Source of the DNA: an uncultured delta proteobacterium
GTDB lineage: Bacteria; Desulfobacterota; Binatia; UBA9968
Reading direction: 5' to 3'
Assembly (NCBI GenBank): GCA_963840855.1
Contig: CAWJBB010000030.1
Location: forward strand, 192,001 to 256,000
DNA length: 64,000 nt
Each line of letters begins with the position of its first letter. Within the stretch, counting starts at the first letter, position 1. The notes under the pieces are model-generated. The model searched no databases. It was not told the origin of the DNA and saw only the letters and a list, made by a program, of their open reading frames with translations. A program made the position numbers and the translations under genes. This document shows positions 15,114 to 63,521 of this stretch, piece after piece.

Positions 15114-15582
15114 CTAATGTGATGGTTGTGAAATTTCCGGATAACGTAAGCGGACCACTCGAGCGAGTCCCTTGAGTTTATCCTCGATCCTCAACTTAAA
15201 GTGTTCTTCGGGGATCAAGCACTCGAGGCACGCTTCCGGTCCGGGGAGAACAATTATAGAAAACAACTCCGTCTTCGAAACGACTTGATAACGAACCCGC
15301 CTGCCGAACTTCTTTGCTTCATACTCCGTAACTCCATCGACTTCGCGCAACAGGCCCTCAGCGAACGGGTGCTCGCCGCGGAAAAATTTCGTTTGCACTT
15401 TCGGAAATCGCTGCTGAATGTGCCGTTCCACCCGACGCAGCGCTACATCACCATTGGTGGTCCCGGACCACAGCAACCCTACGTTTCTCCCTTCGAGAGT
15501 TGCGAGCCGGGGGCTCACCCCCCTGAGGCTTTAGGTCGCCACGGATCTCCGCTACGGGATTCAACACTTTGAGCTGTGCCAT
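15114..15582 (-). pseudogene. Collapsed paralog of the UGSC operon: UGSC N-terminal part fused to the C-terminal part of the small CxxC protein
   Basis: MAQLKVLNPVAEIRG..SPRLATLEGRNVGLLWSGTTNGDVALRRVE..RGEHPFAE aligns with 60462..60743; ..GPEACLECLIPEEHFKLRIEDKLKGLARVVRLRYPE aligns with 63276..63521; +1 shift in a G6 run near 15520. Confidence 0.8.
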
Positions 15583-47497: not shown

Positions 47498-47518
47498 ACG
47501 CCGAAGGACGTGAACGTG

Positions 47519-49276
47519 ATGAAAACCATCGCAATCCCGTATTCGGGTTGGCAAGGTGTGAAGAGCCGCTTGCGCGGTAATGTGCTGCCTTTTCTTCTGA
47601 CCGGCTTTCTCGTCTTTCTGGTCATCATTCCACTGGCGCGTTTGGCAATCAACAGTTTTCAATTGGGTCATCCGGCGTTGCCTGAAGGCTGGACGCTGCA
47701 GAACTATTCAACGGCCTTGTCGATGCCGCTTTTTTATGAAGCCCTTGGCACGACAGTTGTAATCTCCGCCATCGGAACTCTATTGACTCTCGGCATCGCC
47801 ATTTTATTCGCGTGGCTGATCGAGCGCACGGATATGCCCCTGCGCAATCTCGCCTGGGCTTTGATTTTGATCCCGATGGCGATCCCCGGCGTGCTTTTCG
47901 CCCTTGGATGGGCGCTGCTGCTCGCCCCTAAGACGGGGGCGTTGAATCTTATACTGCGGGCGGCTATGGGCGCGTTGGGTTTCGAAGCAACCACGGGTCC
48001 GATCAACATTTACTCCGTCGGCGGATTGATCTTTCTCGACGGCCTGCGCGGCGTCACGACGGTGTTTCTCATGGTCGTCGGCGCTTTTCGGATGATGGAT
48101 CCGACTATGGAAGAGGCGGCGCGGGTGGCGAAAGCCAGCGGCAAGAGCGCTTTTTTTCAGATCACTCTGCCGGCTTTACTTCCGGCCGTGCTCACCGCCG
48201 CGATCTACTCGTTTATCTCGAGCATGGAATCCTTCGAAGGACCGCTGGCCATCGGGCTTCCGGGGGGGATTTTCGTTCTAAGCACGTTGATCTACTTCAC
48301 GACCCGGCTGCAGGCGCCACTGGATTACGGTTTAGGCGCGGTATTCGGCGTCATATATATGGTCTTGATGCTGTTTCTATTGGTTGGTTACCGGCGAGTG
48401 GTGCGCTATTCCGAACGTTATTCGACCATTACCGGCAAGGGATTTCGCCCCCGAGTGGTTTCCATCGGCAAATGGCGCTATCCGGCTCTGGGAATGTTTA
48501 TCGCCTATTTTATCGTTACCGTCGGCGCGCCCTTTGTGATTTTGTTATGGGCTTCGCTGCTGCCGAGTTATCGCATTCCTTCGATGGAGGCTTGGAGTCT
48601 CATTTCCCTGACGAATTATTTGCAAGTCTTCGCCATGCCTAATGTCGGTTCGGTGGTTTGGAACACGCTGTTCTTGATGATTATTTCGGCCACCGCCACC
48701 ATGCTCTTGGCCTTCTTCGTTTCCTGGGTCATCGTGCGCACACAGCTCAGCGGCCGGGGCGCCCTCGATGCGGTGGTATTTTTTCCGCACGCGGTGCCGG
48801 GTATCGTGGTCGCCTTGGCGCTGATGATGGCTTACTTGAGCCCGCCGCTGAAGTATCTCGGGATCTACGGCACGATCTGGATTCTCGGTATGGGTTTCAT
48901 CGTCAGTTATATCGCGTTCGCCACCCGTTTGATGAACAGCTCGATCATTCAAGTGCATAAGGAATTGGAGCAGGCGGCTTATGTTTGTGGCGCGACACCG
49001 ACGCGCACCTTGCTTGCCATTACTCTGCCGCTTCTCTTTCCCGCGTTTGCCGCGGGTTGGGTTTGGGTCGCCGTGCACGTGCTGCGGGGTTTTTCCATTC
49101 CCTTGATGCTTTCGAGCAGAAACAACCAGGTTTTTGCGGTGATGCTGTGGGATTATTGGGACAGAGGGCTGGTCTCGCTGGCCTCGGCGCTGGGAGTCTT
49201 GCTCATCCTCGTATTGATTCCGCTGACCCTGGTCATGCGCCGTTTCATCGTTCAAGTCAGCGGGCAGCAAACCTAA
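47519..49276 (+). CDS. ABC transporter permease (FbpB-like)
   Basis: MDPTMEEAARVA and ELEQAAYVCGA motifs; about 12 TM segments. Confidence 0.92.
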   Translation: MKTIAIPYSGWQGVKSRLRGNVLPFLLTGFLVFLVIIPLARLAINSFQLGHPALPEGWTLQNYSTALSMPLFYEALGTTVVISAIGTLLTLGIAILFAWLIERTDMPLRNLAWALILIPMAIPGVLFALGWALLLAPKTGALNLILRAAMGALGFEATTGPINIYSVGGLIFLDGLRGVTTVFLMVVGAFRMMDPTMEEAARVAKASGKSAFFQITLPALLPAVLTAAIYSFISSMESFEGPLAIGLPGGIFVLSTLIYFTTRLQAPLDYGLGAVFGVIYMVLMLFLLVGYRRVVRYSERYSTITGKGFRPRVVSIGKWRYPALGMFIAYFIVTVGAPFVILLWASLLPSYRIPSMEAWSLISLTNYLQVFAMPNVGSVVWNTLFLMIISATATMLLAFFVSWVIVRTQLSGRGALDAVVFFPHAVPGIVVALALMMAYLSPPLKYLGIYGTIWILGMGFIVSYIAFATRLMNSSIIQVHKELEQAAYVCGATPTRTLLAITLPLLFPAFAAGWVWVAVHVLRGFSIPLMLSSRNNQVFAVMLWDYWDRGLVSLASALGVLLILVLIPLTLVMRRFIVQVSGQQT

Positions 49277-49279
49277 AGG

Positions 49280-50380
49280 ATGCCCATGCGAGTCACCGTA
49301 AGCGGATTGACCAAGAGCTTTGAAACAACGGACGGCCGCGCTGATGCGCTGCGCGGACTCGACTTCCAGGTCCAGGCGGGGGAGTTCTACACGCTATTGG
49401 GACCCAGCGGATGCGGCAAGAGCACGACGCTCAGGTGTATAGCGGGGCTCGAGCGTCCCGACTCTGGTGAGATCGCCATCGGAGAGAAGATCGTGGCCGG
49501 CTCAAAGGTCTTCGAGCCGCCGGACAAACGGCCCATCGGAATGGTGTTCCAATCCTACGCCATCTGGCCGCACATGACCGTATTCAAGAACGTAGCTTTT
49601 CCCCTGAAACAACAGCGAGTGCCGAAGAGAGAGCGGGAAAAACTGGTCATGGAAGCGCTTGCTCTGGTGAAGATGGAGGAACTGGCGCAGCGGCCGGCAC
49701 CCTATCTGAGCGGTGGCCAGCAGCAGCGGGTGGCGCTCGCCCGAGCCCTGGTGTCGAAGCCCCAAGTGTTGTTGCTCGATGAGCCGCTCAGCAATCTGGA
49801 CGCCAAGCTCCGCGAGGACCTCAGGTTCGAAATCAAGGAACTGACGCGGCGATTAGGCATTACCACGCTGTATGTCACCCATGATCAGACCGAAGCCCTG
49901 GCCATGTCCGACCGGATTGCGGTGATGCTGAGTGGGCAGATTCTCCAGGAGGCATCGCCCAGGGAGCTGTATCTGAAGCCAGGCGCGAAGTTCGTCGCGC
50001 AGTTCATCGGTCAAGTGAATTTCTTCGAAGGGAGCGTCGCCGATTCATCCCGCGACGGCTTGGGCGTGGTTCGCACGGCGCAAGGAGATCTGCGCTGCCT
50101 CATCCCATCGTCGCTGCCGAGCGGCGCCAAAGCTCTGGTTAGCGTAAGGCCGGAGAGTTTTCAGATCACGCGGGAACGGCAGGCGAACGAGTGCAATGTT
50201 TTGGAAGGAACGGTCGAAAAGTTCGTTTTTCTCGGCGACTTCATCGATTGTCAAATCCTCATGGGTGAGCAGGCCGTGCGTGTCAAACTGCCCGCAACAA
50301 GCGATCTCAATCAGGGAGAACGGGTATTTCTGCAGTTCGATCCCCGCGCCTGCATCCTGATCCCGGCAGCAACTGCATGA
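49280..50380 (+). CDS. ABC transporter ATP-binding protein (FbpC/PotA-like, TOBE)
   Basis: GPSGCGKS, LSGGQQQR, LLLDEP, YVTHDQ. Confidence 0.95.
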   Translation: MPMRVTVSGLTKSFETTDGRADALRGLDFQVQAGEFYTLLGPSGCGKSTTLRCIAGLERPDSGEIAIGEKIVAGSKVFEPPDKRPIGMVFQSYAIWPHMTVFKNVAFPLKQQRVPKREREKLVMEALALVKMEELAQRPAPYLSGGQQQRVALARALVSKPQVLLLDEPLSNLDAKLREDLRFEIKELTRRLGITTLYVTHDQTEALAMSDRIAVMLSGQILQEASPRELYLKPGAKFVAQFIGQVNFFEGSVADSSRDGLGVVRTAQGDLRCLIPSSLPSGAKALVSVRPESFQITRERQANECNVLEGTVEKFVFLGDFIDCQILMGEQAVRVKLPATSDLNQGERVFLQFDPRACILIPAATA

Positions 50381-50401
50381 AGTGGCCTCATCTCGAGACG
50401 G

Positions 50402-51103
50402 TCAGTCGACACCCGTCGACTTAAAGGCTGCACGTACCGCGGGCGTGGCGAGGAAGCGCACAAAGCGCTGCGCCAGCTCCGGCGCCTCGGCTCCGGTTGA
50501 AACCCCGGCCGCATAGGTGGTGATGTTTTCGATTTCTTTGGGAAGAGGACCGACCAGTTTCACGCCTTGATCGGAGCGCATGAGAATCGCAGTGATCTGG
50601 CCAAAGCCGATTTCCCTGGCGGTTCGACTGCTGGCGAGATGTTTCATTACCCCTTCGGCATCGGGAAAACGGATGGTTTTGGCCTTTGCCTCTTCGGCAA
50701 TGCCTAGCTGTTCCAAGAGCTTCTCGACGAAAATCCCCGACGAGCCTTCGGTGTAAACAATCGATTCGCTGGCGATGAGTTCGTCTTTGAGCGCCCGCGC
50801 TGTGGAGATGTCGGGCTCGGGCTCGCCCCGGCGAATCACCACGCCGGCCTTTACGCTGCCGATAACCGCGCTCGATCCGGCGGCGACATGGCCGCTTGCC
50901 GCGAAATCTTCCACTGTTTGAATGGGAACGAGGAGCACATCCGCGTTAGCTTCCCCGCTTTCCACCCGGCGGCGAATAGCTGGAGCCGTGGCGAATGTAA
51001 GGACGACCTTGTGCCCGGTTTCTTTTTCGAAGGCCTGGGCTGCGGTTTCGAGCCCTCTCTGCACCGCGCCACCGCTCAGGACTTTTAGGATTGATGCGAC
51101 CAC
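50402..51103 (-). CDS. ModA-like substrate-binding domain protein (no obvious signal peptide; start uncertain)
   Basis: LKVLSGGAV..FEKETGHKV, PDIST..AL, GSSG, LVGPLP.EI. Confidence 0.8.
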   Translation of the reverse strand: MVASILKVLSGGAVQRGLETAAQAFEKETGHKVVLTFATAPAIRRRVESGEANADVLLVPIQTVEDFAASGHVAAGSSAVIGSVKAGVVIRRGEPEPDISTARALKDELIASESIVYTEGSSGIFVEKLLEQLGIAEEAKAKTIRFPDAEGVMKHLASSRTAREIGFGQITAILMRSDQGVKLVGPLPKEIENITTYAAGVSTGAEAPELAQRFVRFLATPAVRAAFKSTGVD

Positions 51104-51172
51104 TGAAGTCAACTTGATCGAGTTCTGCCAGCTAGGAGGCCTCAACCAAAGGGAAAGAATGAATGTTGCTTT

Positions 51173-51248
51173 ACCACGAAGGCACGAAGGACACGAAGTC
51201 TGAGCGAATAAATATCCGAACCCTTCGTCTACTTCGTGCCTTCGTGGT
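51173..51248. repeat. CACGAAG periodic inverted repeat
   Basis: ACCACGAAGGCACGAAGGACACGAAG...CTTCGTCTACTTCGTGCCTTCGTGGT. Confidence 0.75.
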
Positions 51249-51265
51249 GGAATTTCTCTGCTGCT

Positions 51266-51691
51266 TCAGTCCGCCAGCACGCCCATGTCCCGGCCACCGC
51301 CATGCTGATAGATGATGCGCTTGCCGGTCTTTTCATCGATTTCGTTTCTCTGCCCACCGGCCTTCGCGACATCTTCCGCCGTCGCCTTGTGGCTGTTGCC
51401 CAGGAGAATCATCGGCTCGTCATTGGGATTCGACCCTTCGTAGAACTCGTGGGCCGGGATACTGATTATCTGTCCCTGGGAAACCTCGTGGGTTTCATTG
51501 AGCCCCTTCATGATCCCTCGCCCGGTAAGGACGTAATAGGTCCGGTCCGACGGATGGTTGTGCATGCGCTGCACGTCACCCGGCGGAAAAAACAGAATCC
51601 AGGTGTCCAGGTTCTCTCTTCTAAAGAGATCCAGGCGGCGGTCGCCTTTTTTTCTCTCCTTTGCCTTCTCGGAAATATCTATAACCTGCAT
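51266..51691 (-). CDS. Cupin domain protein
   Basis: GGAGG RBS; MHNHPSDRTYYVLTGRG and IPAHEFYE cupin-like motifs. Confidence 0.85.
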   Translation of the reverse strand: MQVIDISEKAKERKKGDRRLDLFRRENLDTWILFFPPGDVQRMHNHPSDRTYYVLTGRGIMKGLNETHEVSQGQIISIPAHEFYEGSNPNDEPMILLGNSHKATAEDVAKAGGQRNEIDEKTGKRIIYQHGGGRDMGVLAD

Positions 51692-52045
51692 ACTAACCTC
51701 CCTTTTAGTTTTAATTTCTTTCGCATTGTGCCTCCCCCCGCCTCCACCGAACCGACTCTAGTCCCGCCAGCGACGGGCTGTCAAGTTCCATCCAGGCAGA
51801 GGAATACAAAATAACAGATCCTGCTTGTTGTCATGCCCCGGTTCTCAAGGAAAAAATGGTTCGTCGCCTTGACGTCCCGGCGTTGACTGAAAGTGTTGCA
51901 GTCATATATGCCAGCGCAAGGAGTTGATTCAGCGGAAGAAGATTGCATCGGCAGCCTCCGCTGGCGGCTTAGCGCCCGGTTTCTGACCCGAGAATGGGCA
52001 CTATAAGACAGAATCATCAATGTCACGCGCCAATTGCTTCGTGGG

Positions 52046-52126
52046 GTTCAATAGTTCAACGGCTAATAGCCACTAAACCCGGTTCAAATCGTTCAAGACA
52101 TTCAACCGCTTCGCTCTGTTCAAGCC
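52046..52126. repeat. GTTCAA periodic repeat
   Basis: GTTCAATAGTTCAA...GTTCAAATC GTTCAAGAC ATTCAACCG CTTCGCTCT GTTCAAGCC. Confidence 0.7.
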
Positions 52127-52204
52127 GTAGTGGCAGCAAATAGCAAGAGTAAAGACCTACCCTATTCAGTGACGGTTGCTCTAAGAAATATCCTCTTGCC
52201 TAAA

Positions 52205-52414
52205 TGTATCATTGCGTGCGACAGTGACGGTGCTTAAATATGCGGTGGATTTCCTGCACGGATTCTATGGAATACCGATTACCCGCATGCCGATGGAATG
52301 GAACCGGCCAGAGCTCTTCCTGATTTCGACAGTCACCCGATCTCAGATGAGTCGAAACGGACAATTCTGTGGGATAACGCGGTCAAGCTCTCCGGGCAGC
52401 GTTTAGTCAGCTGA
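52205..52414 (+). pseudogene. Amidohydrolase C-terminal remnant
   Basis: Uncalled frame reads RILWNTDYPHADGMEPARALPDFDSHPISDESKRTILWDNAVKL. Confidence 0.7.
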
Positions 52415-52492
52415 GAAGTCGATTTGAACGCGGCTTATCCTGAGGAACAACACTTGAGGGAATAAAACTAAAAACGCAACGAGGAGGTTCGC

Positions 52493-53644
52493 ATGGCCGA
52501 ATACAAGCTAATCTCGGCAGATTCCCACGCAAATGAAGTCCCTGCAACGTGGGAGCGTGTCCGCCGCAAGTACGGCGATCGTGCTCCGCAAATAGTGTGG
52601 GATCCAAGCGAAGAGGAACACGGTCCGTACCTATCGATTCCGGAGTGGGAAACAAGTCTCGAAGGGAATAACCGTGAATCGTGTGCGATGGAGTTCGTGG
52701 GTATGGTGATCGGCGGGCTCGGCGTCGGCAGCGTCGTCGGTCGTACTTCGGCGAAAGCGGCCGAATTTCGCAAGAAATTCCGCTTTGAGGACTGGCCGGG
52801 GCCGTGGGAGCCGAACTCCCGGCTTAAAGACATGGACCGCGACGGAATAGAAGCCGATATTATTTACGCAAGTCATCTGCGCCACATTTACGGGCTAAGC
52901 GTTAAGGACGAGCCTTTTTTTCGCGCGATTGCGCAGTCGTACAATGACTGGTTGATGGAGTACTGCAGCGTTGATCCTAAGCGGCTTATCGGTCTGCCGG
53001 TACTTTCCATCCTTGACGTTCAAGGCGCGGTGCAAGATTTAACCAACTACAGCAAGCAAGGGGCTAAAGGATTCATGATAGCGTCATCGACGCCGATCGG
53101 CAGCAGCTACGGCGACAGAAAGTTTGATCCCTTATGGGCGGCAGCGCAGGAAGCGGACACGCCCCTCGCCCTGCACACCACGACCGGGGCATGGAAAAAA
53201 GTCAAGTTCCATCACCCGCGGGTTCGGACCAGCATTCGCGGCGAGGGTGAAATTCAAACGTCCCTTCTGGAGATGATCTACGGCGGTATTTTCGATCGAT
53301 TTCCTCGTTTGAAGATTGTCGCCGCAGAATGGGACATCGGTTGGGTCGCTCATATGGTGGCTAAATTCAAAGACCATGATCCTAAAACCGGACTCGAATT
53401 GGCTCCCGCCGAATACTTCCGCCGTAACATCTGGTTCACGTTCGAAAATGACCGCGCCGGAGTGTTGACGACCCCGCTGTACGGTGCGGACCGCTTTTTA
53501 TGGGCGAGCGACTACCCGCATGGCAACACCACATGGCCGGATTCCAAACAGATTGTCGAACAGCAGTTTGAAGGGATCCCTGACGAAATCAAGCGTAAAC
53601 TCACGCGGCAGAATGCGATCGATCTCTACAAGCTGGAAGTGTGA
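52493..53644 (+). CDS. Amidohydrolase_2 family protein
   Basis: GAGGAGG RBS; ISADSHANE, LALHT, AEWDIGW, WASDYPH..TTWP. Confidence 0.92.
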   Translation: MAEYKLISADSHANEVPATWERVRRKYGDRAPQIVWDPSEEEHGPYLSIPEWETSLEGNNRESCAMEFVGMVIGGLGVGSVVGRTSAKAAEFRKKFRFEDWPGPWEPNSRLKDMDRDGIEADIIYASHLRHIYGLSVKDEPFFRAIAQSYNDWLMEYCSVDPKRLIGLPVLSILDVQGAVQDLTNYSKQGAKGFMIASSTPIGSSYGDRKFDPLWAAAQEADTPLALHTTTGAWKKVKFHHPRVRTSIRGEGEIQTSLLEMIYGGIFDRFPRLKIVAAEWDIGWVAHMVAKFKDHDPKTGLELAPAEYFRRNIWFTFENDRAGVLTTPLYGADRFLWASDYPHGNTTWPDSKQIVEQQFEGIPDEIKRKLTRQNAIDLYKLEV

Positions 53645-53692
53645 TCGCAGTATTGGCGAGCTTAGGTCACGGCAGATCCAACGGAGTCATTT

Positions 53693-54796
53693 ATGAAACT
53701 GTTACGCCGGCATGCGGCTTTCTCTTGGTTAGTGTTCGGAGCTCTTGGCTTGCCGCTTTTCGCAGCGACCGCGCAGCCGAAGCAAACCAAGCCGCAAGGC
53801 TACCATGTTAGTTCCGGTCGCGAAGAAATCGTCTCAGCGGCGATGAAAGAAGGAAAACTGCGCATTCTCACGACCATGGATGATGCAGACAGCAAAGCGA
53901 ATACGGCGGCGTTCAAAAAGAAATACCCGTTTCTGGATGTCCACGCACAGCAAAGCCGCGGAACTGATTCGGCGCAGCGCTTGTTGCTGGAAATCAAAAG
54001 CGGCATGGCTAAAGAGTGGGATGTTGTGCTGGTCTCCGCGGATTTCTACAGCGAGTATCACCCGTACCTCTGGAAAGTGGATATTCTCGAGATGGCGAAA
54101 AAGGGAGTCCTCCAGATACCGCCGCCGATGATTGATCCTCGCAATAAAAATGTGCTCGCTTCGTTCAGCTACTTTCAAGCGACCGCGTATAATTCCAAGC
54201 TGATCCCGGCCAATTTGGTTCCCAAAACATTGAACGACCTATTGCGACCGGAGCTCAAAGGGCGAAAGTTTGCCGTGGATATTCGACCTAAGGATGTCGC
54301 CGGGCTTGTTCCTGCATGGGGCGTGGAGAAAACTTTGGATTTCGCCCGTAAGATTGCGGCCCAGCAACCGATCTGGGTGCGCGGCGGGACGCGCGTTATG
54401 ATGTCCATTATTTCAGGCGAAATCCCCATGATGATGGGCAATAACTATGGTAGCGTTCGGGAAGCGCAGCGCAAAGATCCTGCGGGTGTGCTCCAGTACG
54501 CAATCCTCGAGCCCGTACCCGTCAGGTTCGGCAACGCTCAGGCGATTTTGATGAGTGCGCGCAATCCTTACGCTGGCTTACTCTGGCTGGAATGGCTTGC
54601 ATCCCCCGAAGCACAGAAAATCATCGACGACACTGAGCCTTACAGTTCTTCGGTTTACGTGCGCGGCGGTGTGGTGGAACAAGAACTCAGGGGCAAGAGC
54701 TTGTCTGTTGTTGATTGGGAGCACTATCCGCAAATGGAAGACTGGCAGGCAAAAATCGTGGCGGCGTACGGTTTCCCCAAGGCCGATACGAAGTGA
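53693..54796 (+). CDS. ABC substrate-binding protein
   Basis: Signal peptide; KEGKL, YNSKLI..PKT.NDLLRPE.KG, YGFPKA. Confidence 0.9.
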   Translation: MKLLRRHAAFSWLVFGALGLPLFAATAQPKQTKPQGYHVSSGREEIVSAAMKEGKLRILTTMDDADSKANTAAFKKKYPFLDVHAQQSRGTDSAQRLLLEIKSGMAKEWDVVLVSADFYSEYHPYLWKVDILEMAKKGVLQIPPPMIDPRNKNVLASFSYFQATAYNSKLIPANLVPKTLNDLLRPELKGRKFAVDIRPKDVAGLVPAWGVEKTLDFARKIAAQQPIWVRGGTRVMMSIISGEIPMMMGNNYGSVREAQRKDPAGVLQYAILEPVPVRFGNAQAILMSARNPYAGLLWLEWLASPEAQKIIDDTEPYSSSVYVRGGVVEQELRGKSLSVVDWEHYPQMEDWQAKIVAAYGFPKADTK

Positions 54797-54839
54797 TCGC
54801 ATTACAGGGAGCCGCGGCTCGAGAGGAGTTTACTGTCAC

Positions 54840-55790
54840 ATGTCTGAAGAAAAACCGACTACGCGCCTGAGAAAGCTGCTCAACAGGACAGATCGGGTGC
54901 TCGTGATGCTTCACCCTCCCAGTGCGACGCATGCGCGGATTATGGAAACTGCCGGCGTCGAAGCGCTGTTCGTCGGGACCGGCGCCGTCGTCGGGGCATA
55001 CACCGGTTTAGCGGATGTGGGAGTGGCGAGCATGACCGAATGTGTAACGATTGCCGGCTGGATCGCGCGCAGTGTTGCGATCCCCGTGATGCTCGATGGC
55101 GACACGGGTCACGGTGGCATCATGGCCGTACGGCGCCTGGTGGCCGAGTGCATCAGGGCAGGGATTGCTGGACTGCGTCTTGACGACCAACCGGGTGAAA
55201 CCAAGCGGGGAACACAAACTTCCGGAATCGAAGTAGCACCGCTCGAAGTTGTCCTGGCCCGTTATCGGGCGGCAGTGGACATGAAGGACGAACTTGATCC
55301 TGATTTCGTGATTATGGCGCAGAGCTACGCGCGCGACGCGGCCAATGGCGGATTCGATGAGTTTTTACGGCGGATCAAAGCTTACAAAGAACAGGCCAAA
55401 GTGGATTGGGTTCAATTTGAATCGCCTCACTCGATAGAGGAGATTCAGCAAGCGCGCGCGGCTGTGGCGGGAACTTTCTCTGCGCAGAAAGGCAAGCTCT
55501 CACGAATTCTATCTCTCAAAGAGCATCTCGAATTGGGGCTCAACGCAGCGTGGTATTCCGGTATGGGAACCGCAGTCACCTATGCCGCGCTGTGGGATTT
55601 TCTGCAGGATTTCCAACAACGCGAGCTCGCAGCCTGGGAGGATTTCCGCGCAGCCCACAAAGATAATCCGTATCTGCGCGGTAGCCGCGGGGCAAGTCCG
55701 GAAGGGCGCGAAAAACAACGCGAGCTGGAGGAACGCTATTTCCCGAACGAGATGCTGCAGAAATACCGCGACCCTTCCGACAAACGCTAA
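54840..55790 (+). CDS. Isocitrate lyase/PEP mutase family protein
   Basis: GLADVG, DGDTGHGG, LDDQ; catalytic-loop position reads TKRGTQ rather than KxCGH. Confidence 0.88.
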   Translation: MSEEKPTTRLRKLLNRTDRVLVMLHPPSATHARIMETAGVEALFVGTGAVVGAYTGLADVGVASMTECVTIAGWIARSVAIPVMLDGDTGHGGIMAVRRLVAECIRAGIAGLRLDDQPGETKRGTQTSGIEVAPLEVVLARYRAAVDMKDELDPDFVIMAQSYARDAANGGFDEFLRRIKAYKEQAKVDWVQFESPHSIEEIQQARAAVAGTFSAQKGKLSRILSLKEHLELGLNAAWYSGMGTAVTYAALWDFLQDFQQRELAAWEDFRAAHKDNPYLRGSRGASPEGREKQRELEERYFPNEMLQKYRDPSDKR

Positions 55791-56018
55791 TCTGCTGCAA
55801 GGTTTGGAACCCTTGGAAAAAATCCGGCCTACGACGCCTTACATGCTGACCATCGACGACGTCAGAGAGTTTCCGAGGTATGAGAAAACGTGGAAGGAAA
55901 CCTTTCAGATCCGCTGAAATGAAATTACCGGAACGATCCAGAACAGCGCGGCTCGGAATTTTCATCGGGTCACAGAATCCGTATTCAGGCTGCACTTAGG
56001 TCTACTCTATGCGCCCGT

Positions 56019-57140
56019 CTATTTTTGGCCCTCAGCTTTAGGGAAACCATAGGCGTCAAACACTTTCTTCTGAAGCTCTTGCATCTTAGGGGAGTGGTCC
56101 CACGCCACCAAAGAGGATTTTTTTCCCCGCGTGACTTGATAGGCAATTGTGCCGGGCGTGAAAACAGAACCCTCAAAACTGCTCTCTATTATTTTCTGTG
56201 CTTCCGGACTGGCAACGAATTCAAGCCACAAAAGACCGGCATAGGGAGATGCAGCTTTGTCAAAAACAGCCTCATGGTCGCCGATCCGAAGCGGGATAGG
56301 TTCAACGACCTTGTAAGCAAGATCGCCGGCTTTGTCTTTCTCCATGGCTGCCTTAGTGCTGTTTAAATTAGCTCCGAGGAGCATCGGGTATTCTCCCGCA
56401 ACCATCGCCGCAAGCACTCGGGAATGACCTCGGACCCAGACCGGGTTTTGCGCGGCTATCCCTTTGGCAAATTGCAGAGTTTTTTCAAGTCCCCAGGCAG
56501 GAACCAAGGCGGCAACCTCCGAGGGCCGGATGTCGACGACGAATTTTTTCTCTTTGAATTCGGGTTTTAAGAAGTCATCCCATACGCCGGGAACCTTGTC
56601 CTCGGAGATTAGTTTCTTGTTGTAGGCCACAACCTGGGTATTGGTGGTGTAAGCCAGAATGTTGCGGTTTACCGGGTCGATCATCTCCGGCGGAATGCGG
56701 AGAACACCGTGCTGTGCCATGCCCAGGAGGTCAAGTTTCATTTGGTGCGGGAGGTAGTCGTCGTATAAGTCTGCGGCAACATAGTTCGTATCCCAGCCCT
56801 TTGCTGCACCGCTTTTCATTTCCAGGACCATGCGCTGATGTGTATCCGTTCCCTGGACCTCCTCTGCGCGCAGATCAATGAAGGGGTATTTCTTTTTGAA
56901 CGCTTCCGTAAGCAGCTTCAGGCTTCTTTGCGTTGTCAGAACGCGTACCCGCCCCTCTTTTTTTGCTTTGGCGACTATTTCGTCGTGACTGGTTTCGAAG
57001 ATATACCCTTTGGCTTTCGCCGCCTGCTTCGCTTTGGGTAAGTCAGGACTTGGCGCGGCAGAATAGGCAAGCGGAGTTGCCAGCCCGGGAGCAAACAGCA
57101 GCGCCAATAGCGCGAATTGGGACAAATACCGAAGGTTCAT
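56019..57140 (-). CDS. ABC substrate-binding protein
   Basis: Signal peptide; AKKEGRV, YNKKLI, PEFKEKKFVVDIRP, YGFPKA; paralog of 53693 and 59263. Confidence 0.9.
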   Translation of the reverse strand: MNLRYLSQFALLALLFAPGLATPLAYSAAPSPDLPKAKQAAKAKGYIFETSHDEIVAKAKKEGRVRVLTTQRSLKLLTEAFKKKYPFIDLRAEEVQGTDTHQRMVLEMKSGAAKGWDTNYVAADLYDDYLPHQMKLDLLGMAQHGVLRIPPEMIDPVNRNILAYTTNTQVVAYNKKLISEDKVPGVWDDFLKPEFKEKKFVVDIRPSEVAALVPAWGLEKTLQFAKGIAAQNPVWVRGHSRVLAAMVAGEYPMLLGANLNSTKAAMEKDKAGDLAYKVVEPIPLRIGDHEAVFDKAASPYAGLLWLEFVASPEAQKIIESSFEGSVFTPGTIAYQVTRGKKSSLVAWDHSPKMQELQKKVFDAYGFPKAEGQK

Positions 57141-57215
57141 AAAATACGTCCGCTCCATTTTCAGATGGGGGCCCGCTTATTCTGCTGGGGCTCCCTCTTT
57201 TATGACGCGCCCCGC

Positions 57216-57340
57216 AGCTGTAGGCATCGGTCTCGTACGCTGACCGAATCGCGTCGTCCCGATTCTCGTGTTGCCGACGTATGGCGCTAAGCTTTGCTGC
57301 CGGTCCCCGTTGTTGCATCCTCAGTATGTTAACATCCTCG
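57216..57340 (-). pseudogene. Possible C-terminal remnant of a RAYT/IS200-like Y1 transposase
   Basis: QQRGPAAKLSAIRRQHENRDDAIRSAYETDAYS resembles the pre-HTH C-terminal segment of such proteins (recognised from memory). Confidence 0.4.
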
Positions 57341-57350
57341 GTTTGATGCC

Positions 57351-57393
57351 CCGAAGGCAGAGGTCACAAGTTCGAATCTTGTCGGGTGCGCCA
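57351..57393 (+). tRNA. 3' half of tRNA-Arg(CCG) (fragment; att-site-like)
   Basis: CCG-AA-GGCAG-AGGTC-ACAAG-TTCGAAT-CTTGT-CGGGTGC-GCCA: anticodon, T-arm, acceptor 3' strand and CCA; no 5' half upstream. Confidence 0.85.
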
Positions 57394-57405
57394 GACCTCA
57401 AATCC

Positions 57406-58479
57406 TTACTCCGGCGCATACACCACGATGCATCCACGGCAGGCCAACTCCTTCGCTGTCGTGGCCACATAGACGCGATTGTTGGCGAGACTCACCCCGA
57501 GCGAGCGCGCGCCATTCGACGTCGGTATCTGCTGCAGGCCCTTTTTCGTCTTGGTGTCGACCACCATCAAGGTTCCACCTGAGGTGGAATGGTAGTACTG
57601 GCCGAGTTTGCGATTCACCGTCGAGCCGCCGTTGCCGCCGTATCCCGTGAGATATGTTTCCACCTTGCCGGCCGCGATATCGAAAATCGCCATGTCACCG
57701 CCGGGCTTGGGAGACGGGCCGTGGACGCTGCTGCAACCCAGGAAAATGGTCGAGTCCGAGACGATGGCGAGACTATGCGGATGACACCCACCGAGTTCGT
57801 GCAGCTTCACGAGCTTGCCGTTTTTGGGATCGGTCTGCGCCAACAATCCCTTGGTGGTGTCGGCGCGTGATACCGGGATGGCTGTGTAGAACATGCCGCT
57901 TGGCGCGTGATACGCGGAACGCTCCAGGTTCTCGCCGGATTCCGGAATAGGGATCTTCGCCAGGATTTTGTGATCGGGCGCAGTCGAGATGAAGCTGAGG
58001 AACGGCGGATCGTCGTTCGAATTGGCGACGATGACGACGCCGATGTCTTCGCCCATGGCCATCCCGTTGGCGCGCTTTTTTCCGCCAGTGGCGACCGTCC
58101 CCGTAATCTGGCCGGTCTTGGCATCGATCACCTTGATCGCGCTGTCGCCGTCGCTCACCCATACTTCGGCGCCGCCCTTGACGACCACAACACCATTCGG
58201 TCCCGAGGCATTGCCATCCTTTAACCGTCCGACGAAGCCCGGTATCCGCGAGACGAATTTGTCGGTCTTAGTATCGAAGACGACAACGGATTTGTTGGTC
58301 TTGTCGGCGAGATAGCCAAGACCCGTCGTTTGGTCGATGGCCATAATGCCGATGTCGGTGATCGGATCACCGGGAATTGATATTTCTGCGACCTGTTTCA
58401 GGCCTCCGGCCTGCGCGGGACTAGCGGAGATCATGGCGGCGAGTGCTGCAACGATCACGGACGTGGAACGCGACTTCAT
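57406..58479 (-). CDS. Secreted YncE/YVTN-like beta-propeller protein
   Basis: GGGAGG RBS, signal peptide, repeated beta-blade segments (YLADKTN, SGPNGVV, WVSDGDS). Confidence 0.8.
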   Translation of the reverse strand: MKSRSTSVIVAALAAMISASPAQAGGLKQVAEISIPGDPITDIGIMAIDQTTGLGYLADKTNKSVVVFDTKTDKFVSRIPGFVGRLKDGNASGPNGVVVVKGGAEVWVSDGDSAIKVIDAKTGQITGTVATGGKKRANGMAMGEDIGVVIVANSNDDPPFLSFISTAPDHKILAKIPIPESGENLERSAYHAPSGMFYTAIPVSRADTTKGLLAQTDPKNGKLVKLHELGGCHPHSLAIVSDSTIFLGCSSVHGPSPKPGGDMAIFDIAAGKVETYLTGYGGNGGSTVNRKLGQYYHSTSGGTLMVVDTKTKKGLQQIPTSNGARSLGVSLANNRVYVATTAKELACRGCIVVYAPE

Positions 58480-58569
58480 CGGCTCCCTCCCTGTATCTTT
58501 TCTTGGCAAGCATTAGCGACACATTATCACGATCAGACCCATGGACGCATCACTACAACAGAGAGAGCC

Positions 58570-58688
58570 ATAATGAAAGCCCCTTGAGCTAAAAGCGAAA
58601 GCTGTGGCAGCACGCTAGCCCAAGTCTCATTGTCCATTGCTCGCCAAGTTGCGCAGGCTTTGCGGAGAGTATGCGGGGTAATTCGCAT
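58570..58688 (-). pseudogene. Possible tyrosine recombinase fragment
   Basis: RITPHTLRKACATW resembles the H-x-L-R box II; rest degenerate. Confidence 0.4.
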
Positions 58689-58982
58689 CGCTTGCAGTCT
58701 CGCTCGGCGACCGGTGATGGCATATCCGCTTGCAAATGTTTGCAAGGGTGTTCGAAAGTTTGATGCGATTTTTTATGATGGGTCGTGGAGGTCTAGACCG
58801 TTGTCTCGGTCTTACGTTCTCCAGCGCAGCGTCTCGCCCTTTACGGGATTGACGAACGGCTGGCCGCTCTCCGAAGACGCCAGCCACGCCTTCTTCAGCT
58901 GCAGATACCATTTCATCGATTTATCGGCATAGTTGATCAGAATTTGCAGTGGCGAATGACGCAGACCATCCTGCGGCGTGCT

Positions 58983-59120
58983 ATTTTCTCTGCCGACGTT
59001 TTCAGGGAACGCGATGAGGCGATCGGCTACGAGTTCCGAGTGCTCGATGAGGTCGGTGGCGTGGCTGACAACACCCGGAATCAGGATCTTCCCGGCGGGG
59101 AGTTTTACGTCGCGCCAGAC
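58983..59120 (-). pseudogene. Cobalamin-independent methionine synthase II family remnant
   Basis: Uncalled frame VWRDVKLPAGKILIPGVVSHATDLIEHSELVADRLIAFPENVGREN. Confidence 0.75.
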
Positions 59121-59262
59121 CTGATACTCAAGATCGCTCTCTGACTATCACTTTAACTCCAATTGTGAGATACAGTGGGCGAGTGCCGCTATGCTTTAGG
59201 CATCAGCCTACGAGCGACGGCTCTGATCCGGCACACGGGCAAAAAACCAAAGGGTATGCGCC

Positions 59263-60399
59263 ATGGACACGACTTTTACGCGGAGAGTCTCATTGTTGCT
59301 GATTCTCGTTCTTTCCGGTTCCTGTGCAGTAGCTTCCGCTGTTATTGCCGCCTCCGCTGAGCCCAAATCAGTTACAGCTTCGCACCTCGATTCCAAGAAA
59401 CAGGGCTACACGTCCTTCGGCACCAAAGATGAAATCGTGGCTGGTGCCAGGAAAGAGGGTAGCCTGCGCGCGATGAGTCAATTCGATCAGAGAACAAATA
59501 AGGCTTGGGTTAGTGCTTTCAAGAAGCGGTATTCGTTTATTGATGTTCAGGTAGCCGATGCCACCGGAACTGACCCGCAGCAGCGGCTGCTCCTCGAATT
59601 AAAGAGCGGGCGACCGACAGGCTGGGACGTCTATGACATAGCTCCGGACTTTCATTCCGAATACCTTCCGTATACCGGGAAGTTTGACATCATGGGAATG
59701 GCTACGGCGAAGGTTCTCGCAATACCCGTACCCATGATCGACCCAAAGAATCACAATGCAGTGAGTATCGCGAGTTCCGCCCATGGAATCGCATACAACA
59801 GAAAGCTGATCCCAGAGGGTAAACTCCCCAAGTCATGGGACGACTTCCTAAGGCCGGAGTTCAAAGGAAAAAAATTTCTAGTTGATACTCGCCCCCAAGG
59901 ATTCGCCGCTCTCGCCGCGGGACTAGGTGAGAAGTGGGTCGTAGATTATGCGCGGAAGATAGCGGCGCAGGATCCAGTTTGGGTACGTGGTCAGAGCCGT
60001 TATTTCACCTCCATAGCACAGGGAGAGCACGCGTTGTTTCACCTCGCGTATCAATACAGTTGCGTAAGAACAGCGAAGAAAGTCCCCACCGATTCTTTGG
60101 GATGTGAAATCGTTGAGCCTGTGCCGGTTAGGATTCAAAACTTTTTAGCGATAAATAGTACTGCTCAACACCCAAACTCCAGCCTTCTCTGGCTGGAATT
60201 TCTCGCAAGCCCTGAGGGCCAGAGGATTATTGACGAGCATGAGGAATTCAATGCATCGTTGTTTTCTCCAGGCTCAAAACTCGCAAACTTGATTCAGGGA
60301 AAGAAACTGTCCGTGAATAGTTGGGACACTATTCACAATAGCGATAAGTGGCAACGGATGGTCATCGAGGCCGTCGGGTTCCCGACTGCGGAGAAGTAA
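59263..60399 (+). CDS. ABC substrate-binding protein
   Basis: Signal peptide; ARKEGSL, YNRKLI..PKSWDDFLRPEFKG, VGFPTA. Confidence 0.9.
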   Translation: MDTTFTRRVSLLLILVLSGSCAVASAVIAASAEPKSVTASHLDSKKQGYTSFGTKDEIVAGARKEGSLRAMSQFDQRTNKAWVSAFKKRYSFIDVQVADATGTDPQQRLLLELKSGRPTGWDVYDIAPDFHSEYLPYTGKFDIMGMATAKVLAIPVPMIDPKNHNAVSIASSAHGIAYNRKLIPEGKLPKSWDDFLRPEFKGKKFLVDTRPQGFAALAAGLGEKWVVDYARKIAAQDPVWVRGQSRYFTSIAQGEHALFHLAYQYSCVRTAKKVPTDSLGCEIVEPVPVRIQNFLAINSTAQHPNSSLLWLEFLASPEGQRIIDEHEEFNASLFSPGSKLANLIQGKKLSVNSWDTIHNSDKWQRMVIEAVGFPTAEK

Positions 60400-60461
60400 C
60401 GTGACATACATTTCGGAACGTTAGGAACTTTCACCTGGAATATTCGCATAAAGGAGAAAAC

Positions 60462-62135
60462 ATGGCAGAGCTCGAAGTGTTAAATCCGGTGGCGGCGATC
60501 CGCGGCGAGCTAAACGCTCGGGAGGTTAGCCCCCGACTAACGAGTCTGGAGGGAAGGACGCTGGGGTTGTTGTGGTCAGGAACTACCAACGGTGACGTGG
60601 CATTGCGCCGGGTGGAGCACCGTCTGCAGGAGCGATTTCCCAATATTCGAACGAAGTTCTACCGTGGCGAGCATCCGTTTGCCGAAACCTTGCTGCGCGA
60701 CGTAGCGCAGGCGTGCGACGGGGTTGTGATCGCGACCGCCGATTGAGGGACCTGTAGCTCGTGGAGTATCCACGGGGCAGTAGAACTGGAGAAACTAGGA
60801 AGACCAGCGGTTACCATTGTGTCGGGGCGGTTGGAGGGGGACGCCGTCGAAAGCGCCCGTGTGTTCGGGATGCCGCATCTGCAGTATGTAGTAGTGCCCT
60901 GGATATATCGGAACCTGGACGCCGAGCGCGTGTTGGAGCAGACGGACGGAGCGATCGATGACGTGGTGTGCGAGCTTACGACGGCGCGGCAGGCGAGAAA
61001 TGGGCATGTTGTTTCGTCCGAGTCGGAGCGATTCAAAGGATGCGATCGGTTCGAGGCGGTGGAGCGGATGAACGAAGCATTTCTCCTGCGCGACTGGGGC
61101 GACGGCTATCCACTGCTGCCTCCGACCCCCGAGGCGGTGGATCGACTACTTAAGGGAACCTGCCTGCCGCGAGATCACGTGCTGTGTGATCTACCGCCCG
61201 GATGGGGATTGGCAACGATTGAGAAGGTAGCCATCAATGCAGCCATGGCAGGGGCGAAGCCGGAGCAGATGCCGGTAATCTTGGCGGCTCTCAAGGCGCT
61301 CTCCAAGGTGGATCCGGAGATGGCGCGGCACATCCTCATGTCCACCGGCTCCCACGCCTCCCTGCTCGTGGTGAACGGGCCTATCGCAAAGGAAATCGGG
61401 ATCAACGGGCGGGCGTGTATGGGCCCAGGCCGGGACAACCATGTAAACCTGACGATCGGTCGCTCATACACGTTGTGTCTGAAGAACATTGGCCAGTGGT
61501 ACCCTGGGCAAATGGATATGGATACGGTGGGCTCCGTGCGCAAGTTTACCGTGTGCGTGGCTGAGAACGAGGAAGCGAGCCCGTGGGAGCCCTTCCACGT
61601 CGAGAAAGGATACCGCAAAGACGACAGTGTCGTTACCCACATGGCTACTCGGGGGGAGATCGATATAATCGACCAGGGGAACACTATCCCCGAGCGGGTC
61701 CTGATGAACATCGCCTTTAACTCCACCATGGGACAGAAAGATCTGCGGCACGGGGCAGATTCAGAAATCGGTCGCCGAATCATCCTCATGGTGCCGCCGG
61801 ATCCGGCGCGAATAATCGGTGAGGGCGGCTTTAGCAAGCAGGCGGCGAAGGAGTTCATTCATTTTCACGCCCGCAAGTCCTTGCTTCACACTCTTGCGTA
61901 CGTACCGCTGCGCAGCACGGAGGGCGATCTCCGGTGGCTGCCGCGACACTGGCGCTGGCTGCGAGACCTTTCGGACAAGGAGCTGGACCAGATCCTCGAG
62001 CCGGTGGTGGACCGCGCCGACCGGTACGATCTGTTCTGCGTGGGGGCGGACCGGGCGAAATTCCAGATCATGCCCGGGGGGCCTTCCGTCCCCTCACTGG
62101 AGAACATCGACCAGTACCGCGCCAGCGCCGGATAA
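60462..62135 (+). CDS. UGSC-family selenoprotein fused to a large uncharacterised domain (557 aa, Sec95 at UGA 60744-60746)
   Basis: AAGGAG RBS; ORFs 60462..60746 and 60819..62135 are in the same frame and separated only by TGA; read-through gives ATAD-U-GTCSSWSIHGAVELEKLGRPAVTIV. Confidence 0.85.
60752..60780 (+). promoter_or_regulatory. Candidate bacterial SECIS element
   Basis: CTGT(AG)CTCGTGGA-GTA-TCCACGGG-GCAG: 12-bp stem with a 2-nt bulge; G-starting apical loop after a 19-nt spacer from the UGA. Confidence 0.7.
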
Positions 62136-62156
62136 ATGAGGGAAGAGGGTGCGAAT

Positions 62157-63236
62157 ATGAAGCGGAAAAGAACAACATGTGAGCTCGTTCTTGTATCGCT
62201 TTTCTGCGCGTTCCTGATCGGTCCCCTCATTGTAAATGACGCTTTCTCACAAGCTCCTTTCTACGAAGGCAAGACCATCAGAGCTATCATAGGCCAATCG
62301 CCGGGTGGCTTGGGAGACAGCCGGCTCAAGGCTGTCATTCCTTTTCTGCAGAAGTATATTCCGGGAAAGCCCCTAATCGTTAGGGAGTATATGGAGGGGG
62401 CAGGGGGCCAGAAAGCCGCAAACTATGTTCACAAGACCGCCCGTCCAGATGGCCTTACCATCGGCTTTTATGCCGCAGGCACGGTGCCGGCGGCCGTCCT
62501 CGGACAACCTGGAGTGCTCTACGACCTCAAGGAAGTGATTTTTCTTGGGGCCCACCAGACTGGGCGCCCAACGGTTTTTTTTACCCGCAAAGAATTAGGT
62601 CTGGACAATCTAGACAAACTGCGGATGCACTCCGGTTTGCGCATCGGCGCTCAGGCGGTCGGGCATGGCACGTACTATGTCAGTCGACTGTTCGCCTACG
62701 TATTTGGTCTCCGCGAGCCAAAATGGGTTACGGGCTATAGTGGCCCGGAGTCCGACATTGCCATCGCGAGCGGTGAGATTGATGCTCGGGGTTCTGCGAC
62801 GCATCAAATCGTAACTTCTCGATCAGACTGGGTCGAGAAGGACCTCATGCACTTTCACGCTATTTACGAAGTTCCCAAAGGCAATGGGCACCCGCATCCT
62901 CGCTTTGCTCGACTCCCCGAGTACAGCAGTTTTGCGAAGTCCGAGAGAGAAAAAAAAGTCATAGAATTATATCGGACGACGCAAAGCGCCTCCCATCCCT
63001 TTGTTCTTCCTCCGGGCACTCCTAAAGAGAACGTCCAGATTCTCCGGGAAGCGGTGCGAAAGATGTTTGAGGATCCGCAATTCTACAAGGAATACGAAAA
63101 GCTCACCGGGGAAGCATCCCGGCCAATGAACGGGGAGGCGCTCGAAAAGGAGATCAGGAGCATGGCCGGCGAACCAGACGTCGTAGAGTTGCTCAAGAAA
63201 ATTGGCGGACCTGATCCCTTACCGGCCCGCCAGTAA
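62157..63236 (+). CDS. TctC/Bug-family substrate-binding protein
   Basis: Signal peptide; PFYEGKTI..GQSPGG..YIPGKP..GAGG..PDGLT..LPPGTPKE. Confidence 0.9.
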   Translation: MKRKRTTCELVLVSLFCAFLIGPLIVNDAFSQAPFYEGKTIRAIIGQSPGGLGDSRLKAVIPFLQKYIPGKPLIVREYMEGAGGQKAANYVHKTARPDGLTIGFYAAGTVPAAVLGQPGVLYDLKEVIFLGAHQTGRPTVFFTRKELGLDNLDKLRMHSGLRIGAQAVGHGTYYVSRLFAYVFGLREPKWVTGYSGPESDIAIASGEIDARGSATHQIVTSRSDWVEKDLMHFHAIYEVPKGNGHPHPRFARLPEYSSFAKSEREKKVIELYRTTQSASHPFVLPPGTPKENVQILREAVRKMFEDPQFYKEYEKLTGEASRPMNGEALEKEIRSMAGEPDVVELLKKIGGPDPLPARQ

Positions 63237-63275: not shown

Positions 63276-63521
63276 ATGGGTGACGCGATGATAGAAACGA
63301 TTGAAGGAGCACTGGAGACGCTTCGCAAGTCACTTCAGGCCGACGGTTTCGATCTTAAAGTTGAAGGCTTCAAAGAAGGTGTTGTCTCCGTGGTGGTTGT
63401 AGCCGGACCCGACGCGTGTATCGAGTGCTTAATTCCACAAGAGCATATTAAGTTAAGAATAGAGCATAGGCTCAAAGGTCTCGCTCGGACGGTTCGGCTG
63501 CGTTACCCTGAAAAGCCGTAG
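63276..63521 (+). CDS. Small CxxC protein, NifU/Nfu C-terminal-like
   Basis: ALETLRKSLQADGFDL...ACIECLIP parallels the Nfu pattern RP.L..DGGD...GACxxC. Confidence 0.72.
   Translation: MGDAMIETIEGALETLRKSLQADGFDLKVEGFKEGVVSVVVVAGPDACIECLIPQEHIKLRIEHRLKGLARTVRLRYPEKP

Follow-up and report, generated by a model that had tools for sequence, protein, structure and literature searches.

Two open reading frames (ORFs) that follow each other in a 64,000-nt stretch of DNA from an uncultured delta proteobacterium (assembly GCA_963840855.1, contig CAWJBB010000030.1, positions 192,001 to 256,000; the whole stretch is hereafter called the window, and positions without a contig name refer to it) raise the question of whether the TGA between them ends one protein or is read as selenocysteine (Sec) within a single one, and what such a protein would do. 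As shown below, the forward strand from 60462 to 62135 holds a single gene that belongs to a known selenoprotein family; its Sec codon and hairpin are conserved, and the usual partner domain is fused to the family's own domain. The product is almost certainly a real Sec protein of the UGSC family. It is quite probable that the best explanation as a whole applies, namely, a Sec protein in which the U-x-x-C motif would act as a redox center and the partner domain would hold the substrate.

We analyzed the reading frame across the TGA. The ORFs at 60462-60746 (94 aa) and 60819-62135 (438 aa) lie in a common reading frame, and translation of 60462-62135 with TGA as U yielded 557 residues, of which U95, at 60744-60746, was the sole non-standard step. 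The coding sequence (P0001; + strand) thus consists of 557 codons plus TAA with a single TGA in frame, and a Shine-Dalgarno-like GGAG at 60453-60456 (+) is located 5 nt before the ATG at 60462. The codons 3′ of the TGA are GGG ACC TGT, making U95 the first residue of a U-G-T-C motif, whose Cys98 is coded at 60753-60755 (+). No ribosome-binding site and no conserved start were found in the region after the TGA. The first start codon there was GTG 60819, which lies inside the UGSC domain, indicating that it is not the real start of the second called ORF. Furthermore, the 72 nt from the stop to this GTG were conserved as protein. As observed in the databases, the best 120 homologues were 319-460 aa in length and all began after the TGA, and a separate entry held a 94-aa protein with 93% identity to residues 1-94. 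The preliminary description of this DNA had joined the two called ORFs into one 557-aa frame with the TGA as its lone break, had seen coding-like sequence continuing through the gap, and had supposed that gene callers would split such a gene. The first point was borne out by the read-through translation, the second by a Pfam domain spanning the TGA and by the protein-level conservation of the gap, and the third by the truncated homologues and by the N-terminal part that is on record alone.

The domain that spans the TGA is the UGSC domain (residues 6-173; 60477-60980, +). Pfam PF24696 matched these residues on model positions 2-171 of 172 with 113.1 bits (E 2e-32; cut-off 25); the match is end to end, indicating that one domain runs across the TGA. 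U95 is predicted to lie between strand 87-93 and helix 96-111. Members of the family carry Sec or Cys at the first position of U/C-G-S-C; Sec was found at this position, and the third residue was T, not S. The UGTC variant, which had been put forward from this single sequence, was found to be real and fixed in the clade, with UGTC in 78 of 80 orthologous loci and UGAC in the other two. That the UGSC family is known and of unknown function, as had been stated, agrees with the PF24696 match and with the literature. PMC1976440 (2007) presented the UGSC-containing protein as a selenoprotein of unknown function; PMC2398784 (2008), an ocean survey, counted 255 Sec and 21 Cys forms, proposed a thioredoxin-like fold, and described a "UGSC/Unknown_1" fusion (text and Fig. 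S1A); and PMC13188914 and reviews from 2022 and 2026 still gave the family without an assigned function. The family (Zhang and Gladyshev 2007/2008) has therefore been in print since 2007 and the fusion since 2008, and this kind of protein is already known.

Besides the gene structure, the conservation of the Sec codon was analyzed. A tblastn search of the own genome with the read-through protein gave copies on five other contigs (C24, C72, C86, C82, and C23), each with TGA aligned to U95 and with protein conserved on both sides. The preliminary description had left to be checked whether homologues have Cys or UGA at codon 95, and both were observed. At the U95 column, all 18 copies (from 12 loci of relatives plus five contigs of the own genome) had TGA, and so did all 80 orthologous loci from species representatives, none of which had TAA or TAG; among full-length called homologues, 16 of 19 had Cys at position 95 and the other three had Thr, Ile, or Ser. 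Each of these loci aligns as a single piece over at least residues 1-552 with 50-81% identity, except that L087, cut by a contig end, starts at residue 25. As titled, they belong to Dehalococcoidia or Dehalococcoidales (69), delta-proteobacterial bins (3), Chloroflexi or Chloroflexota (3), SAR202 (2), Candidatus Entotheonella (2), and Thermoflexus (1). Of 41 related genomes searched, 35 gave a match (a count that includes G009, flagged unpublished, on which no result depends by itself). Among the matches listed in these genomes, TGA was contained in 83 of the 83 that span residue 95 and in 1 of the 67 that do not; these counts refer to the matches listed, and three more matches exist. We also observed that a contig from an unrelated public run (X4) covers 60691-60867 with 12 differences, none of which is at the TGA; X4 gave this one contig, and the contigs of runs X1, X2, and X3 do not reach the TGA. 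Otherwise, TGA is the commonest stop in the genome, terminating 629 of 1529 ORFs of at least 400 aa, so that a genome-wide reassignment of TGA was ruled out.

In bacteria, the Sec insertion sequence (SECIS) is a stem-loop directly 3′ of the UGA, with its loop within the range where SelB acts. RNAfold of 60738-60800 yielded a SECIS-like hairpin at 60752-60780 (+), which is composed of 4 bp, a 2-nt bulge, and 8 bp and starts 8 nt downstream of the UGA; its loop, GUA at 60766-60768, follows the UGA by 19 nt. The conserved core consists of this loop and the 8-bp stem 60758-60765/60769-60776. In 16 of 18 copies, the stem GUCGUGGA / UCCACGAC was found again, closed by a 3-nt loop (GUA or GUG) and equally far from the UGA; the other two (L028 and C72) showed a different hairpin at the same place. 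In the 16-row alignment, five of the upper eight pairs were invariant, one varied on one side, and two changed on both sides, from G-C to C-G in the window gene and its orthologue and from A-U to U-G in G014 and G023. The lower four pairs were mostly unpaired in other copies. A 12-bp bulged hairpin with a G-initiated loop 19 nt after the UGA had been described at this place; the fold is indeed as described, but conservation extends only over the upper 8 bp and the loop, and the lower 4 bp are particular to the window gene. The 80 orthologous loci (38 distinct sequences, also described as the Dehalococcoidia group) had the same stem with the loop UGG. Third codon positions in the stem showed entropies of 0-0.57 bits, with Ser TCG and His CAC each in 38 of 38, and among flanking degenerate third positions five showed 0.79-1.98 bits and the rest 0.30-0.56 bits. 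Protein constraint does not account for these frozen synonymous sites. Judged by comparison among the copies, the hairpin is real; the evidence beyond chance for the locus is comparative and consists of the Pfam domain across the stop, the TGA kept at one column, and the conserved stem with its frozen synonymous sites.

The Sec machinery of the genome was also analyzed. The genes selD (383 bits), selA (616 bits), and selB are located together on contig C1, with selA and selD above their cut-offs, and SelD itself carries U in its N-terminal G-U-A-A-K motif, indicating a Sec-type selD. At least 12 candidate Sec genes were found in the genome, comprising six UGSC genes, five genes of the GrdB/PrdB family, and selD.

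The GrdB/PrdB genes bear on the function of the UGSC domain. At E up to 10, Pfam GRDB (PF07355) gave five genes and one weak fragment in the genome. The five genes (C30:183963-185243, which is about 6.8 kb before the first base of the window; C74:71885-73174; C46:2434-3762; C49:66560-67837; and C61:84931-86232) scored 373-446 bits, and each runs through an in-frame TGA at codon 347-353 for ~80 residues more, with the motifs U-G-T-S, U-G-T-C, U-G-S-S, and U-G-T-G. The Pfam model stops just before the Sec. A typical GrdB-type read-through is ILTST-U-GTSTRSGAAITTELEKAGIPTVQIT, compared to VVIATAD-U-GTCSSWSIHGAVELEKLGRPAVTIV in the window protein, and the spacing is equal. When 13 UGSC domains were aligned by hhalign with the C-terminal parts of the five PF07355 proteins, a probability of 92% (E 7e-7) was obtained over 72 columns with Sec on Sec, compared to 0.4% for the reversed control. 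With five motif columns masked, the probability was 44% (E 2e-4) in an unchanged register. The N-terminal part of GRDB resembled neither UGSC (0.7%) nor the partner domain (0.2%), and PF07355 gave no match to the window protein at E up to 0.1. These alignments suggest that the UGSC core and the Sec-bearing module of GrdB/PrdB are probably remote homologues in one module, which is not membership of the GrdB family.

The partner domain, the "Unknown_1" of Zhang and Gladyshev (2008), is a tightly packed part of ~370 residues (about 185-557; 61014-62132, +). No Pfam or NCBIfam family matched these residues, and 4532 homologues were found at E up to 0.001. Its motifs are WGDGYPLLPPT, AINAAMAGA, NGP, N..IGR, and AENEEASPW, and D214, T222, N329, R334, E368, and W375 are its conserved residues, the first five of which are polar, enzyme-like invariants. 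In 81 aligned orthologues, Cys85, U95, Cys98, Cys242, Cys339, and Cys365 were kept. Among the 83 listed matches that span residue 95, 27 reach at least residue 380 in one frame, and the other 56 are shorter, being restricted to the N-terminal domain or cut off. The UGSC and partner domains occur both fused and as adjacent split forms, in keeping with the earlier view that the C-terminal domain is often a separate neighboring gene. Four database homologues (P0168, P0227, P0239, and P0243; 709-741 aa) have two partner-domain stretches each and no Pfam domain, and they are probably tandem partner domains.

An AlphaFold2 model of the whole chain (118-row alignment) reached a predicted local distance difference test score (pLDDT) of 94 and a predicted template modeling (TM) score of 0.94; the prediction thus packs the two parts into a single compact body. 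In the model, five strand-helix units follow one another over residues 33-173. In fold searches, residues 27-179 matched many unrelated Rossmann/flavodoxin-like families at Z 9-11, none outstanding, and no thioredoxin was among the 50 fold matches listed. Generic alpha/beta matches confined to residues 27-179 were all that the whole-model fold search gave, and they were set aside. The partner domain modeled alone had a pLDDT of 93. Against 48,161 chains, VIA-align gave no match for it at Z of 8 or above (best Z 5.8, to encapsulin and phage capsid pieces), and Foldseek gave E 5.6e-4 at best with TM 0.17-0.22 (class I fumarate hydratase, cyanuric acid hydrolase, and IRG1). These matches to encapsulin/capsid, fumarate hydratase, cyanuric acid hydrolase, and IRG1 are too weak to name the fold. 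Sequence searches of the Protein Data Bank with the protein and with a 26-row profile gave nothing of note. The UGSC domain would bind the partner domain, as suggested by the single-chain model, the fusion, and the adjacency of the split forms.

Fusions and neighbors of the partner domain were analyzed as pointers to its companions. Of 14 longer partner-domain homologues, four were fused C-terminally to a Pyr_redox_2 flavoprotein, and one of these (P0275) contains a thioredoxin-reductase-like C-A-D-C-D-G motif. Another three of the 14 are Cys forms of the M-A-G-A subfamily with 42% identity and an N-terminal extension of ~100 residues; the extension of P0272 holds a CxxC, and one source calls two of the three NfuA. 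In the window, the stop of the selenoprotein gene is directly followed by a gene for a 366-aa protein with an N-terminal hydrophobic segment (62136-63236, +; a start at 62157 is also possible), for which a TctC-like Pfam match was weak (E 0.0021; 18 bits vs a cut-off of 27). Located 39 nt past this gene is that of a small NifU-like protein of 81 aa with one CxxC, ACIEC (63276-63521, +; Pfam NifU, E 5.4e-7). The order of selenoprotein gene, 366-aa gene, and NifU-like gene is kept in L022, L038, L039, and L040 and not in the other 77 loci. The NifU-like protein is a candidate thiol carrier for the selenoprotein. On the upstream side, 62 nt before the selenoprotein gene, a solute-binding protein gene encodes 378 aa (59263-60399, +; SBP_bac_6, SBP_bac_8, and SBP_bac_1), and a solute-binding gene with 43% identity is at the same place in L039.

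From these data, the following mechanism can be proposed. The UGA at 60744-60746 would be read as Sec, directed by the downstream hairpin with SelB and tRNA-Sec. Sec95 would be the catalytic nucleophile or redox center, and Cys98 would resolve it to a selenenylsulfide. Like selenoprotein B of the glycine and D-proline reductases, the center would act on a small substrate, which the partner domain would hold. Thiol carriers would return the center to its reduced state; these could be a flavoprotein of the thioredoxin-reductase type or a small protein with a CxxC, for example the NifU-like product of 63276-63521. We infer Sec insertion, the chemistry, and the electron path from the conservation, family, and fusion data. 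It is probable that U-x-x-C acts as a catalytic redox center working with the partner domain. A GrdB-like reductive cleavage specifically, suggested by analogy, is a tentative proposal with somewhat less than an even chance. In selenoprotein B enzymes, the Sec attacks the substrate and a Cys resolves it. More doubtful, yet possible, is a wider reading in which UGSC would be the free-standing catalytic Sec module of selenoprotein B and Unknown_1 a new substrate-holding subunit; together, they would form undescribed selenium-dependent, thiol-fed reductases, of which the UGTC/Ala265 clade would be a distinct enzyme. In this clade, Sec was present in 81 of 81 members, and no Cys form was found among the species representatives fetched.

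Several observations weigh against the proposed reading and are considered here together. First, tRNA-Sec was not found in the assembly by Rfam RF01852 or ARAGORN. The best RF01852 match (43 bits vs a threshold of 47) was a tRNA-Ser, and the other best matches were Trp and Leu; ARAGORN with default settings gave 39 tRNAs, none of them SeC. Lowered ARAGORN thresholds gave 245 and 6388 "tRNAs", which are noise, and the seven SeC candidates at the 90% setting had no Rfam match. The assembly, a metagenome bin of 93 contigs with 8% contamination, has a completeness of 94% as judged from marker genes and only 39 tRNA genes. Second, selB is in two pieces in different frames with a 14-nt overlap (C1:38613-40500, −; L005 about 1470-1530). 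Both halves are otherwise open and conserved, the second frame holds the expected F-R-L-P-V-D-R-A-F motif, and the break would be either a 1-nt frameshift or an assembly error. The genome search for sel genes that had been suggested earlier therefore succeeded for selA, selB (in two frames), and selD, but not for selC. Third, the folding energy of the hairpin was within the range expected by chance (z = −1.08, with an equally good fold in 26 of 200 shuffles), and energy alone was dropped as evidence. Furthermore, the stem lies within conserved coding sequence (S-W-S/M-I/V-H-D), indicating that part of the hairpin's invariance is at the protein level.

Other points concern the family and the function. 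NCBIfam NF041046, the UGSC equivalog model, matched residues 31-172 with 92.2 bits (E 2.9e-26), below its cut-off of 125 bits, indicating a diverged, fused subfamily that is not the equivalog. Even with E up to 10, PF07355 failed to match any of the six UGSC loci. The hhalign alignments are small (Neff 3.3 and 2.4), and about half of the score comes from the U/C-G-x-C motif. Residue 265 is Ala (M-A-G-A) in 81 of 81 clade members and Cys in most of the more distant homologues, and this Ala265 replaces a Cys that was marked as conserved in Unknown_1 in the 2008 paper. Therefore, any mechanism that needs the Unknown_1 Cys is inapplicable here. The NifU matches in the N-terminal extensions described above were sub-threshold in three of three cases (E 0.06-0.21). 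Lastly, the neighbors differed in five sampled and five paralogue loci, where TPP (thiamine pyrophosphate) enzymes, solute-binding proteins, phosphoenolpyruvate (PEP)-mutase-like proteins, aldo-keto reductase, and coenzyme A (CoA) ligase were observed; the neighborhoods differ between lineages, and no substrate can therefore be named.

Alternatively, the protein could be a real selenoprotein whose U-x-x-C, together with the NifU-like protein, serves to bind or hand over a metal, an Fe-S cluster, sulfur, or selenium, with the partner domain as scaffold or receiver. The synteny of the NifU-like CxxC gene in the four closest loci is compatible with this, as are the three related fusions with a weak NifU-like extension, two of them named NfuA by one source, the absence of the partner-domain Cys from the clade, and neighborhoods that point to no particular substrate. 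However, the UGSC core aligns with the catalytic Sec module of proteins of the GrdB/PrdB type; the four flavoprotein fusions are to thioredoxin-reductase-like proteins, which supply electrons and not clusters; the partner keeps its enzyme-like D214, T222, N329, R334, and E368; and the NifU matches in the fusions stayed below threshold. We consider a role as a cluster or sulfur/selenium carrier unlikely, and a catalytic redox center that works with a substrate-holding partner domain remains our preferred reading.

It could also be argued that the TGA at 60744-60746 is an ordinary stop, such that the 94-aa and 438-aa proteins are made from two genes. Gene callers have treated the best 120 database relatives in this way, tRNA-Sec was not found, and selB is in two frames in the assembly. 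Against this, one Pfam domain crosses the stop; past it, the ribosome-binding site and conserved start are lacking, GTG 60819 is internal to the domain, and the 72 nt in between are conserved as protein. Moreover, Cys stands in place of the stop in 16 of 19 full-length homologues, all 80 orthologous loci keep TGA as this codon, with no TAA or TAG among them, and the synonymous sites of the hairpin are frozen. Two separate genes are thus very improbable. Even more improbable is an error of sequencing or assembly at the TGA, or a Cys codon recently inactivated by mutation (pseudogene), since, despite 8% contamination in the bin, at least two other genes with apparent frameshifts, and stops in the C-terminal part of the C23 paralogue, TGA is present in 80 of 80 loci of independent assemblies and in all five other paralogues, the contig from the unrelated run keeps it among 12 other differences, and the remaining frame is intact. 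Both of these readings are close to excluded.

Paralogues and further neighbors were also observed. The neighbors in the window recur in only the three closest of the 80 orthologous loci, and the C24 and C23 copies as well as an Entotheonella locus adjoin TPP enzymes. C23:19103-20405 and C24:65735-67378 are two paralogues that, neighbors included (TPP enzyme, aldo-keto reductase, and FGE-sulfatase-like), are nearly duplicates of each other. In the C23 copy, the two domains are out of frame with one another and the partner domain contains stops; this copy could be a pseudogene or belong to a second strain in the bin (8% contamination). Directly downstream of the C72 paralogue (L126 4600-5880, −) lies a thioredoxin-reductase-like gene with the motif GVSHCASCDG, which loses frame after ~175 residues. 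Within the window, 15114-15582 (−) is a remnant of a second copy of the selenoprotein locus. Its pieces correspond to residues 1-24 (15511-15582, 58% identity) and 20-88 (15330-15524, 72%) in two frames, and the second piece reads on, without a change of frame, into the C-terminal half of a protein like the NifU-like product of 63276-63521. The remnant looks like the result of a deletion in which the Sec codon was lost along with the partner domain and the gene that follows. Upstream of the selenoprotein gene, a dense run of solute-binding genes (46613-47497, 50402-51145, 53693-54796, 56019-57158, and 59263-60399) extends over 46613-60399; three of them are 40-43% identical to one L039 gene. 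This run also has an ABC (ATP-binding cassette) permease and ATPase, an Amidohydro_2 gene, and a PEP-mutase/isocitrate-lyase-like gene, and it looks like an uptake and catabolism island. In public RNA runs, a fraction of 0.07-0.08 of the sequence words was present.

In public databases, most relatives of this gene, like the gene itself, are cut in two at the UGA, and therefore the protein, its architecture, and the selenium dependence of these organisms are under-counted. Nothing in the finding is special to the window. The fused form fixes the working partner of UGSC, and with the GrdB/PrdB module match, the redox and NifU-like fusions, and a structurally unmatched partner, its function becomes a testable proposal. 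If the reading as a new reductase class, which we regard as doubtful, were true, bacteria of soil and groundwater as well as SAR202-type Chloroflexi would have a large, unrecognized catabolism of small organic compounds that depends on selenium, and the six UGSC and five GrdB-type Sec genes of this genome would point to such a catabolism.

Compared to the UGSC family as defined by PF24696 and NF041046, the window protein shares Sec/Cys at the first motif position and a hairpin just downstream. In contrast, its motif is UGTC, as in 78 of 80 orthologous loci, where the family has UGSC, and the domain, for which the family model has about 150 aa, is here the N-terminal third of a 557-aa protein. 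Its predicted fold of five beta-alpha units is of the Rossmann/flavodoxin type, whereas the 2008 paper (PMC2398784) proposed a thioredoxin-like fold. That paper describes the UGSC/Unknown_1 protein of the Global Ocean Sampling with the same arrangement, UGSC first and then Unknown_1 in one chain. The Fig. S1A block A[VI]N[GA]VMAGC.PEY.P...NGP corresponds to residues 257-307 of the window protein; only a 60-column block of Unknown_1 is printed there, and the match was therefore judged by eye. The fusion in that figure has a conserved Unknown_1 Cys, whereas Ala265 stands in its place in all 81 clade members, and its sequences came from ocean reads, whereas the clade, as titled, comes from soil, groundwater, and sponge-associated lineages.

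The comparison with selenoprotein B extends to one module. The first ~200 residues of GrdB-type proteins are without a counterpart in the window protein. Similarly to GrdB, GrdF, GrdH, and PrdB, which make up the selenoprotein B family of the glycine/sarcosine/betaine and D-proline reductases, the window protein has a strand, U-G-[ST]-x, a helix, ELEK.G.P.V.I, and a strand with the same spacing, and like GrdB/PrdB, it would act with a second polypeptide or domain. Although the kind of protein is known, the clade-wide UGTC and Ala265, the match to the GrdB/PrdB module, the thioredoxin-reductase-like and NifU-like fusions, and a partner domain that stands apart from solved structures, with no convincing match among them, are new here.

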